From assembly GCA_043804695.1 (NCBI GenBank), contig JAZDIV010000117.1, positions 1 through 24,608 of the forward strand: a stretch of 24,608 nucleotides of DNA, written 5' to 3'. Of the stretch, positions 12,001 to 24,608 are shown piece after piece. The position numbers were made by a program. Each line of letters opens with the position of its first letter. Position 1 is the first letter of the stretch. This stretch comes from PVC group bacterium. GTDB lineage: Bacteria; Auribacterota; Erginobacteria; Erginobacterales; Erginobacteraceae.

Positions 12001-15000
12001 ACAACGATGGCGCTAACTTTCAATTTTTACTCCGTAAAAATTGTTGTTGCTTCCTGTTTCGGGATGCCGGTACTCTCATTTTGAGGAAAAATGAGAGTAC
12101 CGGCATCCCGAAACAGTCGCAAAAACAACCGGATAACAATCTTTTGTTTTCGCTATACGATTCTATGGGCTTGCCTTTTCGGACTGAGTATATGAACCCG
12201 AACTGATGTTCGGATTGGCATCGATCTGCTTGCTAATTGAAAAAATGACATTCACCACATTAGCGCCACAGGCGCCAATGTATACCAGATTTCGTTAAAA
12301 CTCAAGTACTGATAAAATATCCCTATGCGAACGAAGAGAGATCGCGACGCCGGGGGGGGGCGCGAATATAATAATAAGTATATTCCTCCCCTTGAGATAC
12401 GGATTTTACCCAGCGGGGATCCCTGGTCGAGGTGGCTGCCGCGGCTGACGCTTGCTTTCGTGGTTTTCGGGCTCATCGTGCGTCTGGTCCGTTATCTGGT
12501 CTGCTACCCGATCTGGCCGGATGAGGCCTTCCTGGCCGCTAACTTCCTGAACGGGGGGTACGGGGATCTTCTGGGAACGCTCCGGTATCACCAGATATCA
12601 CCCCTCCTTTTCCTCTGGGCGGAGATGTTCACGGTCAGACTCCTGGGGTTTTCCGAGTACACCCTGCGGCTCTTTCCCCTCCTCTGCGGCCTGGGCAGCG
12701 TCCTCGTCTTCTGCCGCCTGGGTCGTCGGCTGTTCCGGGGGGAAGCGCTCCTGCTGGCGATGGCCTTTTTTGCGGCAGCGTACTACCCGATCCGGCACGG
12801 GGCCGAAATCAAGCCCTACGCGACGGACCTGGCGGTCTCTGTGCTTCTGCTGGCGCTCTTTGTCGAATGGTGGCGAAAACCCGGAAAACCGCGGCGGCTC
12901 TGGTTTCTGGCCCTGGCGGTCCCCTTCGCGGTCGGGCTCTCATTTCCGGCCGTCTTTGTCGCCGGCGGAATCAGCATTGCCCTGCTGGCGGCGGCCGCGA
13001 AGACACGGAAGACGAAGCTTCCGGCCCCTTTTATCGCGTACAATCTTCTTCTGCTGGGCGCCTTCCTGCTCACCTACCGGGTCTCGACCGGTCCCCAGTA
13101 CCGCGCCGAGGCCTGGCTGAGCGGCCCCCACCCGGAGACCGGGAGCTTCAACCAGGACTCCGCCTGGGTAAGAACCTTCCCCCCTTTCAGGGAGCCCGCC
13201 CGGCTGCCCGGCTGGCTCCTGGCAACCCATACCGGGATGATGTTCGCCTATCCCAACGGCGGCTTTAACGGCGGCTCCACGCTCACCTTCGTCTTCTTCG
13301 CGGCCGGGGCGGGCATTCTCTATTCCCGGAGAAGAAGAATCGTGCTGCTGGCCTTTCTCGCGCCCTTCCTGCTGACGTTCATCGCCGCCGCTCTTCATAA
13401 ATATCCGTATGGCCACAATGCCCGGTTCAACCTCTACCTGGCCCCGATCATCTGTCTCCTGGCCGGGCTGGGAGGAACGAAACTCATCTCCCTGATCCCG
13501 AAAGTAAAAACCCGGACCCTGATCTTCAAACTTCTTATTCTCCTGATGGTTCTGCTGGGGCTGGGGTCCATCGCGCAGGATCTGCTCCACCCCTATAAAA
13601 AAATCGAGGACCGGCGGAGCCGGGAGTTCGCCCGCTGGTTCTGGACCCATCAAGCAGAGGACGCGGAGCTGGTCTGCCTCAAGACCGATCTGGGATTGGA
13701 CTTCTTCCCCCGCCTCTTCGAATGGGGCCATTCGGCGCGCTATCTCTGCAATCAGCGGATCTACTCACCCGCCCACCGGGAGGGCCGGAGAGGTTTTTCT
13801 CCGGACGCGGTCAGCGGGGAGCACCCCCTCCGGTGCGTCGTCTTCAGCGTTCCGGAATGTTATGAGCCCTACGCCCGGCGCGATGAAAACAGGTGGCAGG
13901 AATGGCTGGCTTCGATGCAGGGCCGTTATCGTCTGACCGGCCATGAAAAATTCGAGGTCAACGCCGGCGTGGAGAGCCACCACGAGTGCTACGAGGTCTA
14001 TGAGTTCATCCCTTGATTTTTCCGGGCGAAGCCCGGAAAAATCAAGGGATGATGATGACCCGATCACCTCGCTATCTGAATAATTCGGGTTAAACAGTTG
14101 CCTGGGAGGATTGTCTTTCCCGCGGGGGAATTTGCCTCTTGACCACTGCCGCCGGCAATCTTTACAATATGCCCTCTTCTATAATAGTCCCCAAGGAGGC
14201 AGCATGACACCGTACGAAATAATCATGAAGAAAAGGGACGGCAAGGCCCTTTCCCCGGAAGAAATTATTTTTTTCATTGATGAATACACAAAAGGAGATA
14301 TCCCCGACTATCAGATGGCGGCCTGGATGATGGCGGTCTTTATCCGGGGGATGTCCCCGGAGGAATCAGCGGCCCTCACCCGGGCGATGCTCCATTCCGG
14401 GGGCACGATCGACCTCTCCTCGATCGGGAAAACTACCGTTGATAAGCACAGCACCGGCGGGGTCGGCGACAAGGTGAGCCTGGTCCTGGCTCCCCTGGTC
14501 GCGTCCCTGGGGATCCCGGTTCCGATGATGAGCGGGCGCGGGCTGGGCCACACCGGAGGGACACTGGACAAGCTGGAGGCGATCCCCGGCTTCCGGATCA
14601 GTCTCTCCGAGGAAGAGTTCATCCGGCAGGTCAAGGACGTCGGCGTCGCCATCATCGGGCAGACCCGCTCCCTGGCCCCGGCCGACAAGAAGATGTACGC
14701 CCTGCGGGACGTCACCGCCACCGTGGACAGCATCCCCCTGATCGCCGGCTCGATCATGAGCAAAAAGCTGGCCGCCGGTCCGGACGCTTTCGTCTTCGAC
14801 GTAAAAACCGGGCGGGGCGCCTTCATGAGCACGCTTTCGATGGCTGAGGAGATGGCCCGCACCCTGGTCGAGATCGCGGTTCTCTCCGGGCGGCAGGCGA
14901 CCGCGCTGATCACCGACATGAACCAGCCGCTCGGCTATTACGCCGGGAACGCCCTGGAGATAGTGGAGACCATCGCCTGCCTGAAGGGAGAAGGTCCCGG

Positions 15001-24000: not shown

Positions 24001-24608
24001 GATTTTGACATGAAGTACGGACACCGCCGCGATGCCGGGGCCTACGCGCTGGCTCTGGAGGATTTTGACCGCCGGATCCCGGAGATCATCAAGGCCTTGC
24101 GCCCGGAGGACATCCTCTTTATCACCGCCGATCACGGCTGCGACCCCACGTTTGCCGCCCATACCGACCACACCCGGGAGTACATCCCCCTGCTGGTGAA
24201 CGGGCCGGCGGTCCGGCCGGGGGTGAACCTGGGCACCCGGAGCAGTTTCGCCGACATCGCCCGGACGATCGCCGAGTATCTGGGACTGCCGGTGATGAAA
24301 TCCGGGAAGAGCTTCCTTCAAGATATTACGGCGGGGAGCTGATTTACTGCTTCGAAATTTTACGCCAGAGGTTCCGCCTCTGGCGGACAATAAATGTCGT
24401 AGCGGCGACCTTCAGGTCGCCACTAAATGGCAGCCTGAAGAGGCTGTCCGGTAAACCCTGAAAGGTCATTGCGAGCCCCGAAGGGGCGAAGCAATCTATT
24501 TTTTCATTCATAACCACCTCTTATCCAAAATGATGAGATTGCTTCGTCGCTGCGCTCCTCGCAATGACCTCTAAAATGCCTAAAATCTGAATTATCGGAC
24601 AGCCTCTT

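Follow-up and report, generated by a model that had tools for sequence, protein, structure and literature searches.

A gene cluster of uncultivated bacteria that joins a ComEC paralog to nucleoside-catabolic enzymes suggests DNA uptake chiefly for food or recycling

Whether competence serves sex, repair or food has been debated for decades, and the debate persists because one machine could serve all three. The same question is raised by a locus from an auribacterotal genome (G000) in which genes of the ComEC/ComEA DNA-uptake type lie among enzymes of nucleoside catabolism: for what is DNA imported there? Within the window, i.e. the whole 24,608-nucleotide contig analyzed here, the eight genes that a preliminary description had reported as co-directional between 14204 and 24342 are all present as open reading frames on the + strand at those positions. 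The first is preceded by promoter-like sites (14055–14188), and its start at 14204 agrees with the starts of its homologues. Intergenic gaps measure 12–93 nt, with the single exception of a 370-nt spacer (21345–21714, GC 0.40, no strand assigned) between the sixth and seventh genes, which contains a terminator-like hairpin (21387–21404) and a dispersed repeat (approximately 21466–21701), of which there are at least 25 other copies in G000 at 70–91% identity. The spacer has no Rfam family match, and its counterpart in relatives is just 18–206 nt long. Because of this gap, with its hairpin and inserted repeat, a single transcript across all eight genes of the source cluster is doubtful. In a distant homologous locus (L083), neighboring genes of the cluster overlap by 4–11 nt.

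The two ends of the cluster encode enzymes of clear assignment. It opens with a pyrimidine-nucleoside phosphorylase (PYNP, 14204–15544, 446 aa), for which Pfam/NCBIfam profile searches gave three Pfam domains and a TIGR02644 score of 565.1 bits (cut-off 409.05), and it closes with the phosphopentomutase DeoB (23098–24342, 414 aa; NF003766, 541.8 bits against a cut-off of 256; TIGR01696, 491.1 against 341.2). Only 266 nt remain 3′ of DeoB before the contig ends. A purine nucleoside phosphorylase (PNP) gene follows DeoB in 9/9 loci of the order that extend beyond it, and the G000 copy of that gene stands at the start of contig C8; the cluster probably continues into it across the contig break. 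The adjacency of PYNP and ComEC proposed in the preliminary description also holds: by eye comparison of coordinates, PYNP lies less than 3 kb from a long ComEC gene in 12 of the 14 genomes of the order, and the remaining two, which have no PYNP match, are assemblies of 87% and 75% completeness.

The central gene encodes a 1280-residue ComEC paralog (g01936, 15731–19573), in which N-terminal membrane segments are followed by an OB/DUF4131 region, the competence channel domain and a degenerate metallo-β-lactamase (MBL) domain. It matches PF03772 in two stretches (116.7 bits, cut-off 23) and DUF4131 (PF13567, 51.9 bits, cut-off 31.6) and fails the TIGR00361 equivalog test (97.6 bits, cut-off 190.05); its family profile matches the solved full-length ComEC 30bt with E 7.8e-81. 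In a tree, one branch parts 17 ComECs of such clusters from seven standard ComECs (SH-aLRT 100), and many membrane-domain columns are invariant in the alignment of the 17. The C-terminal domain (18023–19570, + strand) has the ComEC-type MBL fold with an α-helical insert of approximately 200 residues; its AF2 model (pLDDT 83.5) has as its top Foldseek match in the PDB the β-lactamase-like domain of a ComEC, 9ic4 (E 1.1e-15, target TM 0.80). The GQGD, H-x-D-x-D-H, GD, HHGS and DHPH motifs are nevertheless all replaced in 11/11 aligned sequences of the order, and H-x-[HD]-x-D-H is absent from this fused domain in 17/17 cluster ComECs. The cluster ComEC is thus a member of a separate paralog clade that keeps the ComEC MBL fold and has lost its ligands. 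A standard ComEC of approximately 800 residues is encoded elsewhere in G000 and in 5/5 distant genomes checked; its nuclease motif is intact in those five and degenerate in G000.

The ligands missing from the fused domain are present in a stand-alone ComEC-type MBL (20427–21344, 305 aa), assigned as a nuclease by profile and motifs. It scores 58.3 bits for Lactamase_B and 139 bits for the C-terminal part of TIGR00361, and its profile matches the ComEC nuclease domain 9ic4 (E 2.5e-82) and full-length 30bt (E 6.6e-82). Its H99-P-D-Y-D-H104 has the same pattern as the H598-x-D-x-D-H603 of the Moorella glycerini domain, by which the nuclease motif is defined in PMC12455585. H99, D103, H104, D202, H227, H228 and H259 are invariant among 16 sequences, and all nuclease motifs are kept in the ten aligned copies from the order. 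The N terminus is hydrophobic (residues 12–30 in a hydropathy scan), compatible with a secreted or anchored protein. We infer from these sequence comparisons a swap in which the predicted active site has moved from the fused ComEC domain to the separate MBL gene.

Between the ComEC and MBL genes lie two genes for ComEA-like DNA receptors of 104 (19618–19932) and 105 residues (20026–20343), with HHH_3 scores of 51.6 and 81.2 bits (cut-off 27). ComEA2 exceeds the TIGR00426 cut-off of 53.1 (70.2 bits), and ComEA1 falls under both that cut-off (37.9) and the cut-off of 152 for TIGR01259 (52.8). Each has a hydrophobic N-terminal segment, signal-like in ComEA2, by hydropathy scan only (residues 9–27 and 4–22, respectively). 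Upstream of ComEC, orf47 (15557–15700) encodes a conserved 47-residue, apparently single-pass membrane peptide with one hydrophobic segment (residues 6–24, hydropathy scan). It had no family match in the Pfam/NCBIfam profile searches, is found at the same position in 10/10 loci of the order (62–94% identity), and has weak tblastn matches at the equivalent position in the distant loci L083, L084 and L086 (E 7e-7 to 2e-5). Compared with canonical ComEA/ComEC uptake (structures 30bt, 9vc6 and, from M. glycerini, 9ic4), the cluster shares the OB fold, the channel domain, the ComEC-type MBL fold and the ComEA receptors, and it also has H-x-D-x-D-H, but in the stand-alone MBL. It differs in that the nuclease is a separate, apparently secreted gene product, in that the fused domain is ligand-less and carries the long helical insert, and in that the 47-residue peptide and a tethered DHH-type enzyme are added, the whole being embedded in nucleoside-catabolic genes.

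That last enzyme, g01940 (21715–23010, 431 aa), had been assigned with the caveat that the assignment was weak, and its Pfam score alone would justify the caveat: DHH (PF01368) is matched with E 5.5e-4 and 20.7 bits, under the cut-off of 28.1, DHHA1 is not reported, and its profile finds no sequence match in the PDB. Fold and motifs have overturned the caveat. The AF2 model (pLDDT 87.1) has 79 Foldseek matches in the PDB at E ≤ 0.001, with NrnA-like, pAp phosphatase and RecJ proteins at the top; the named folds among the matches listed are NrnA, RecJ, pAp phosphatase, GdpP, PggH and RecJ/Cdc45, and the structure neighbors in the Atlas are DHH/DHHA1 clusters. The catalytic motifs of DHH/DHHA1 enzymes are DxD, D, DHH and a GGGH-type motif; in g01940, H97, D99, D101, D147, D176-H177-H178 and H392 are invariant, and G391 nearly so, among 14 sequences of down to 25% identity. 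The assignment can no longer be called weak: by fold and motifs, g01940 is a predicted membrane-tethered DHH/DHHA1 phosphoesterase. A membrane segment (residues 4–22) is followed by RLLRKK, and the catalytic part is predicted to be cytoplasmic. NrnA and RecJ have the same two-domain fold and catalytic motifs; in contrast to them, g01940 has the N-terminal tether, a disordered linker, and approximately 90 residues of extra helices between its two domains.

DHH enzymes are also active on nanoRNA, pAp and cyclic dinucleotides. For g01940, DNA is hinted at as the substrate, indirectly, by the gene context and by a relative that is fused to a UvrD helicase. Several more distant relatives (P0019, P0026, P0029, P0032, P0061 and P0092) score over the Pfam DHH cut-off, and the family is rare, with 113 representatives at E ≤ 0.001 among 1.84 billion. 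Its reported phylogenetic distribution was reproduced exactly: g01940 is encoded by 13 of the order's 14 genomes, counting G000 (the one without it, G007, is 87% complete), and, among 65 further genomes of the phylum, by G055 alone. Across the 79 genomes of the phylum, its distribution follows that of the cluster-type ComEC (14 and 15 genomes, respectively), with a fragmented assembly as the sole mismatch. Through its place in the cluster, this rare and so far unannotated DHH branch would gain its first function predicted from context.

The conserved gene order claimed at the outset was confirmed over a wider sample: PYNP-orf47-ComEC-ComEA-MBL-DHH-DeoB is found in 9/10 loci from ten other genomes of the order, spanning four families. 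The exception, G009, has no stand-alone MBL at the site, and its contig stops just after g01940. The order is also kept in 14/14 close metagenome contigs, as far as each reaches. Outside the order, G055, which belongs to a different family of the phylum, has the cluster with genes for adenosine deaminase and an RNase_T-type exonuclease added beyond DeoB. Further afield, eight distant loci from genome_contigs encode a DHH protein just 25–29% identical to g01940. Five have the full core, i.e. PYNP, a small membrane peptide, a divergent ComEC, ComEA, a stand-alone MBL and the DHH protein; one starts inside the MBL gene; and two (L085 and L088) have the DHH gene alone, with no ComEC or MBL near it. 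L083 and L087 are labeled as candidate division CSSED10-310, and the metagenome contigs L114 and L116 also agree. DeoC lies upstream in the four distant full-core loci scanned (L081, L082, L083 and L086); downstream there is either cytidine deaminase (Cdd) or a PRTase with adenine deaminase, and a PD-(D/E)XK nuclease is also present. The nucleoside enzymes that flank the core thus vary (DeoB, PNP, DeoC, Cdd, adenine deaminase, adenosine deaminase and PRTase), and the proposed link of ComEC/ComEA to nucleoside catabolism, which recurs in distant genomes with these genes changed, cannot be put down to chance in a single lineage.

Gene content, conservation, paralogy, folds and motifs together make it probable, in our judgment, that the cluster is an import-and-degrade line for DNA, working beside ordinary competence genes and supplying the catabolism or salvage of deoxynucleosides; the activities, membrane topology and co-transcription of its parts are predictions, as is the burning or re-use of its products. 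In such a scheme, the two ComEA proteins would hold periplasmic DNA, and the secreted or anchored MBL would cut it and strip one strand, in place of the ligand-less nuclease domain of the ComEC paralog. The second strand would pass through the paralog channel, with the 47-residue peptide probably acting as a subunit, and at the inner face the tethered DHH/DHHA1 enzyme would degrade the incoming single strand or fragments to mononucleotides, a step to which a PD-(D/E)XK nuclease or a DEDD-type exonuclease may have been added in other lineages. A gap in the scheme, and a point against it, is that the cluster encodes no 5′-nucleotidase; dephosphorylation would fall to an enzyme encoded elsewhere, for which SurE, present in the genome, is a guess. 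PYNP and the downstream PNP would then convert deoxynucleosides to base and deoxyribose-1-phosphate, DeoB would yield deoxyribose-5-phosphate, and DeoC would yield glyceraldehyde-3-phosphate and acetaldehyde. The remainder of the pathway is represented in G000, which, besides SurE, has two copies of DeoC, five PNP_UDP_1 matches, a microcompartment locus with an aldehyde dehydrogenase, and the three cassettes of secreted MBL and HKD genes described below; these speak for the scheme. Gene order and homology are compatible with feeding (carbon and energy) and with salvage (nucleotide pools) alike.

A first alternative is that DNA is digested entirely in the periplasm by ComEA and the secreted MBL, perhaps with HKD nucleases, the products entering as nucleosides or nucleotides through ordinary transporters; the ComEC paralog would then be a nuclease scaffold or a carrier of short oligonucleotides, which the DHH protein would finish as NrnA does. 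Four genomes from three other families of Auribacterota have a ComEC-less form, PYNP-ComEA-MBL-(Cdd)-DeoB-(PNP), in which a plain nucleoside operon appears to enclose DNA-binding and nuclease parts of the competence type, and which counts against the import of DNA strands insofar as ComEA and MBL can evidently serve nucleoside catabolism without it. By eye, 7 of the 37 genomes outside the order that have PYNP also place it no more than 5 kb from a stand-alone MBL, transporters for nucleosides and nucleobases are listed for the phylum (PMC9324843), and NrnA-type enzymes are among the closest folds to g01940. However, conservation is good in both the channel domain and the OB fold of the paralog, the DHH protein tracks the paralog ComEC and not MBL alone, and the additional nucleases (PD-(D/E)XK in the distant loci and RNase_T-type in G055) have no signal peptides. 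We consider digestion confined to the periplasm unlikely.

A second alternative is that ComEC, ComEA and MBL import DNA for recombination in ordinary natural transformation, the nucleoside genes being neighbors only for recycling of the degraded strand, through shared regulation or by chance inheritance. The ComEC nuclease domain normally degrades the non-translocated strand, according to PMC12455585, and as the standard ComEC of G000 is without the nuclease motif, the cell may need the cluster MBL for any uptake. G000 also has DprA (265 bits), three secretins and a ComFC-like gene (98 bits, below cut-off), so transformation is possible in this organism, which counts against the import-and-degrade reading. 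Set against this are the separate standard ComEC in G000 and in all five distant genomes checked, intact in its nuclease motif in the latter, and the persistence of the module beside nucleoside enzymes across two candidate phyla although those enzymes change. Up to three cytoplasmic-type nucleases alongside would destroy incoming DNA, not protect it, and no recombination or DNA-protection gene was found in any cluster examined. Transformation as the purpose of the cluster therefore seems improbable. A defense or DNA-clearance device, in which foreign DNA is taken in or degraded and nucleoside enzymes clean up, would be in keeping with partial matches of the MBL to defense MBL effectors (LmuA, 65.7 bits; Avs1a) and of the distant PD-(D/E)XK protein to Cas4 models (44 bits), but is scarcely credible given that these PADLOC matches span only parts of generic MBL and PD-(D/E)XK folds, that ComEC, ComEA, the DHH protein, PYNP and DeoB match no PADLOC defense model, that the MBL is far closer to solved ComEC nuclease domains, and that, unlike a defense island, the locus remains stable and in synteny across every family of the order.

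Returning to the import-and-degrade reading, its broadest form is that at least two candidate phyla carry a lineage of “nutritional” ComEC translocons, distinct from the transformation ComEC of the same cell, in which the nuclease is outsourced to a secreted paralog, a small membrane subunit is dedicated to the channel, and a tethered DHH exonuclease destroys the strand at the channel exit, so that imported DNA is committed to catabolism or salvage on entry. We rate the chances of this wider proposal as even. If true, this would mark the first case of a “DNA for food” uptake system that can be separated genetically. A single genome may divide the two roles between its two ComEC paralogs, one of them tied to nucleases and deoxynucleoside catabolism, and this possible division makes the question of sex, repair or food testable. 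A natural ComEC with its predicted nuclease in trans, next to a like-folded domain that is predicted to be catalytically dead, would also serve mechanistic studies of how a strand is degraded.

Use of DNA as a nutrient via competence-gene homologues was reportedly described in Escherichia coli by Palchevskiy and Finkel in 2006. The likeness to the present cluster lies in ComEC-type uptake for nutrition and not recombination; in E. coli, however, the com homologues are scattered sole copies, whereas here a dedicated paralog is joined to catabolic enzymes and its own nucleases. In deo-type operons, such as deoCABD of E. coli and dra-nupC-pdp and drm-pupG of Bacillus subtilis, the same enzymes (PYNP, DeoB, PNP, DeoC and Cdd) are found in one cluster, but in the present locus a set of DNA-binding, DNA-cutting and DNA-importing genes replaces the nucleoside transporter. 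Foragers of extracellular DNA have reportedly been described from genomes in a study entitled “DNA-foraging bacteria in the seafloor”. Another genome-based description, of the Izemoplasmatales (PMC7761423), resembles the present case in that one catabolic scheme combines nucleases with nucleoside phosphorylases, DeoB and DeoC; in its available portion, ComEC is named only as a transformation protein, apart from catabolism, and no joint operon is described.

For Auribacterota, DNA degradation has been predicted from deoxyribose-phosphate aldolase and microcompartments (PMC9324843), a point missing from the preliminary description. The cluster offers a genetic basis for this capacity, earlier predicted from DeoC and microcompartments alone. 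As had been reported, a term search of that paper returns 0 occurrences of ComEC, nuclease and DNA uptake; ComEA, competence, phosphopentomutase and nucleoside phosphorylase likewise have 0. Elsewhere in G000, three cassettes (on contigs C7, C37 and C57) had been described as copies of a secreted MBL with two single-HKD nucleases. The cassettes exist, each encoding an MBL with HPDFDH and two H-x-K-x4-D proteins with hydrophobic N termini; their identity to one another at the DNA level is 68–87%, and not 60–82% as first given.

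The eight genes at window positions 14204-24342 are best read as a DNA import-and-degrade line that feeds nucleoside breakdown. We consider this reading probable. What was observed is which genes are present, how they are conserved, the ComEC paralogy, and the folds and motifs of the proteins; what the proteins do, how they sit in the membrane, whether the genes are co-transcribed and what becomes of the products are predicted from these. All eight ORFs lie on the + strand, as the preliminary description had it, with successive intergenic gaps of 12, 30, 44, 93, 83, 370 and 87 nt. 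A pyrimidine-nucleoside phosphorylase (PYNP; TIGR02644, 565 bits, cut-off 409) is followed by a 47-residue ORF (orf47) of no family, a 1280-residue ComEC (PF03772, 116.7 bits; DUF4131, 51.9 bits; TIGR00361, 97.6 bits, cut-off 190), two small ComEA-like proteins (HHH_3, 51.6 and 81.2 bits), a 305-residue metallo-β-lactamase (MBL)-fold protein whose top NCBIfam match is the ComEC C-terminal third, the protein g01940 (DHH, E 5.5e-4, under the cut-off), and the phosphopentomutase DeoB (NF003766, 542 bits). Comparison by tblastn and ORFs with the same region of 10 other Erginobacterales genomes from four families upholds the claim of a conserved gene order: PYNP-orf47-ComEC-ComEA-MBL-g01940-DeoB is present in nine, with one or two ComEA genes per locus. 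The tenth (G009) lacks the stand-alone MBL at the site, and its contig stops shortly past g01940; an MBL of 50% identity is found on a different contig. Identical gene order is observed in 14 close metagenome contigs up to each contig's limit. The 47-residue ORF is a real gene, with one hydrophobic segment, 62-94% identity and an unchanged position in 10/10 loci. A 563-residue membrane protein upstream (12325-14016; weak PMT_2 match) keeps its place beside PYNP in no relative but the one of the same genus. That relative (G001) has the complete cluster twice, on its contigs C17 and C26; the two copies may represent two strains (bin contamination 8%).

A ninth gene is associated with the cluster. 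In all nine loci of the order that reach beyond DeoB, a PNP_UDP_1 gene (purine-nucleoside-phosphorylase type, PNP) follows it. Its counterpart in the source genome (C8:253-996) lies 253 nt into contig C8, and one short repeat is common to the end of the present contig (24343-24608) and the start of C8. C8 is probably the continuation of the present contig, since the shared repeat and the position of the PNP gene are most likely explained by an assembly break between DeoB and the ninth gene.

The cluster's ComEC is a paralog of its own, and its nuclease domain is, to judge by its residues, dead. Alignment with the stand-alone MBLs reveals that the metal-ligand motifs GQGD, H-x-D-x-D-H, GD, HHGS and DHPH are all gone from the ComEC C-terminal domain in 11/11 sequences of the order, and that this domain carries an insert of ~200 residues. 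The model of the C-terminal part (pLDDT 83.5) folds as an MBL interrupted by a helical insert, and its top PDB match is the β-lactamase-like domain of Moorella glycerini ComEC (9ic4; E 1.1e-15, target TM 0.80). The stand-alone MBL keeps every motif, including H-P-D-x-D-H, and its profile matches 9ic4 with E 2.5e-82. The ComEC nuclease domain works outside the cytoplasm; the hydrophobic N-terminus of the stand-alone MBL likewise predicts a site of action there. A predicted complex between this MBL and the dead MBL domain of ComEC scored 0.00, which gives no verdict for or against binding. The H-x-D-x-D-H pattern is common to the stand-alone MBL and the M. glycerini domain, for which the M. glycerini study records the active pattern H598-x-D600-x-D602-H603 and, in vitro, endonuclease and 5'-to-3' exonuclease activity (PMC12455585).

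The assignment of g01940 to the DHH proteins, considered weak in the preliminary description, is borne out by motifs, an AlphaFold2 model and Foldseek matches; g01940 is a DHH/DHHA1 enzyme by fold and motifs. Residues H97, D99, D101, D147, D176-H177-H178 and H392 are invariant, and G391 nearly so, both in 11 sequences of the order and in a 14-sequence set spanning down to 25% identity; we take these residues to be the DHH family motifs. The model, built from 30 sequences (mean pLDDT 87.1), gave 79 PDB matches at E<=0.001, those listed including NrnA, pAp phosphatase, RecJ, archaeal RecJ/Cdc45, the GdpP catalytic domain and PggH, and its Atlas structure neighbours agree. A search of PDB sequences with a profile of the order's g01940 proteins gave nothing meaningful (best E 0.086). 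At the N-terminus, a single membrane helix leads into RLLRKK and then an acidic, disordered linker; the positive-inside rule thus predicts a cytoplasmic location for the catalytic part. This topology fits two relatives, the helix-less P0012 and the UvrD-fused P0018, an 1175-residue UvrD-type helicase whose C-terminal residues 837-1173 form a DHH/DHHA1 domain resembling that of g01940. The family is rare: of 1.84 billion cluster representatives, 113 belong to it at E<=0.001 and 14 at E<=1e-30. Its reported distribution was reproduced (13/14 genomes of the order, 1/65 others of the phylum); the one genome of the order without it is a fragmented assembly, 87% complete.

The module extends beyond the phylum. 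A scan with the alignment of 14 DHH sequences, covering one genome per species, returned Auribacterota loci and eight loci at 25-29% identity, two of which carry the label candidate division CSSED10-310, which NCBI's taxonomy treats as a phylum of its own. PYNP, a small membrane ORF, a ComEC of 933-947 residues, double ComEA, an MBL with a membrane anchor and the DHH protein are all encoded in five of these eight loci (L081-L084, L086); a sixth begins within the MBL gene, and in L085 and L088 the DHH gene is alone. DeoC is immediately upstream of PYNP in all four loci scanned with Pfam (L081, L082, L083, L086). A PD-(D/E)XK nuclease of ~550 residues precedes the DHH gene in L081, L083, L084 and L086. 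Family scans identified it in three of these, and in L084 it was recognised only from the ORF list and a similar N-terminus; L082 is without it. Successive genes of L083 overlap by 4-11 nt, and the downstream genes vary (cytidine deaminase in L086; PRTase and adenine deaminase in L082). Two metagenome contigs read MBL-PD-(D/E)XK-DHH-Cdd (L114) and PYNP-small ORF-ComEC-ComEA-MBL-DHH (L116). The source genome has a 575-residue counterpart of the distant PD-(D/E)XK nuclease (33% identity; C52:38285-39991, locus L098:8298-10025), isolated among unrelated genes between TrkH and TPR genes.

The paralogy is also evident from the standard ComECs encoded elsewhere. The source genome encodes, on contig C73, another ComEC of the usual size (795 residues; PF03772, 205 bits), and a standard ComEC was read by eye in at least 12/14 genomes of the order. 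All five distant genomes likewise have one (783-815 residues) with H-x-H-x-D-H intact, and the nuclease motif is present in 0/17 module ComECs. In a maximum-likelihood tree (24 sequences, 930 columns, quick method), a single branch with SH-aLRT 100 splits the 17 module from the seven standard ComECs; because of long branches, the inner order of the latter is unsure. The nuclease motif of the source genome's standard ComEC is likewise degenerate, making the division of labour less clear-cut there than in the distant genomes. At its locus (L031, C73:4259-8426) it is preceded by a MazF/PemK-like toxin gene and directly followed by a gene whose product has two PLD/HKD domains. Families f21 and f22 of the phylum encode long ComECs of yet a third kind (ORFs of 1160-1172 residues; G061:C234, G062:C586, G063:C125, G065:C6; loci L130, L133); a query with the C-terminal part of the cluster's ComEC gave no match to these, and in L133 a weak orf47-like match lies upstream.

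Elsewhere in the phylum, a genome of another family (G055) has the full cluster, with a 1096-residue ComEC and, past DeoB, adenosine deaminase and an RNase_T-type exonuclease. By-eye comparison of positions places PYNP <=5 kb from a stand-alone MBL in 7/37 genomes outside the order that have PYNP; four of the seven, from three families (G021, G026, G053, G076), have PYNP-ComEA-MBL-(Cdd)-DeoB, followed by PNP in G026 and G076. ComEC and the DHH gene are both absent from these four clusters, which implies that the wider theme is a nucleoside operon that includes a DNA receptor and a DNA nuclease. On this view, the cluster of the order is the simpler theme with an import channel and an inner nuclease added. 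A possible PYNP fusion occurs in G039, where the PYNP match (C40:35940-37184) lies inside a 1048-residue open frame. Digestion in the periplasm with no strand imported could be proposed from the ComEC-less clusters; for the order's cluster we regard it, the first of two main rival readings, as unlikely.

For import and degradation, the following sequence is envisaged. ComEA would hold periplasmic DNA; the stand-alone MBL, acting in trans for the dead-domain ComEC, would cut it and strip one strand; and the remaining strand would pass the paralog channel, to be degraded at the inner face by the tethered DHH enzyme; in other lineages, a nuclease of the PD-(D/E)XK or RNase_T type would contribute. 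A nucleotidase encoded elsewhere would make nucleosides, which PYNP and PNP, then DeoB and DeoC, would convert to bases, glyceraldehyde-3-phosphate and acetaldehyde. The source genome encodes SurE, two DeoC proteins, five PNP_UDP_1 matches and a microcompartment locus including an aldehyde dehydrogenase. The three cassettes noted earlier (C7:3946-6919, C37:19002-21651, C57:488-3232) were found again. Each encodes, beside two Nuc-like single-HKD proteins, a secreted MBL of the ComEC type that has HPDFDH and is 42-46% identical to that of the cluster; as a group they make up a large extracytoplasmic nuclease set. DprA (265 bits), three secretins and a ComFC-like gene under the cut-off leave room for ordinary transformation with recycling genes alongside, which we rate slightly lower still than periplasmic digestion. 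A defence-system reading was considered and rejected.

The component families are known, and the idea of DNA as food is old. The phylum paper predicts DNA degradation via deoxyribose-phosphate aldolase and microcompartments and never mentions ComEC or nucleases, as previously stated, nor ComEA (PMC9324843). We found no description of such a cluster in the full-text literature searched, which did not extend to the supplements of that paper, whose Table S2 gene lists may include the genes. What is new is a clade of dedicated ComEC paralogs whose nuclease is outsourced, its constant association with a small membrane peptide and with a DHH enzyme on a membrane tether, and its setting within nucleoside catabolism in two candidate phyla.

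The spacer between the MBL gene and g01940 (21345-21714) is 370 nt long, versus 18-206 nt in relatives, and contains a terminator-like hairpin. Rfam gave no RNA family anywhere in the window, so no known riboswitch or small RNA lies in the spacer. Within it, a repeat of ~235 nt (21466-21701) has at least 25 further copies in the source genome (70-91% identity), and its palindromic end piece of ~30 nt recurs at dozens more sites in both orientations; missing from the corresponding spacer in relatives, the repeat resembles a MITE or an element of the REP type. Given the long spacer, the hairpin and the dispersed repeat, the cluster may here be read as two units.
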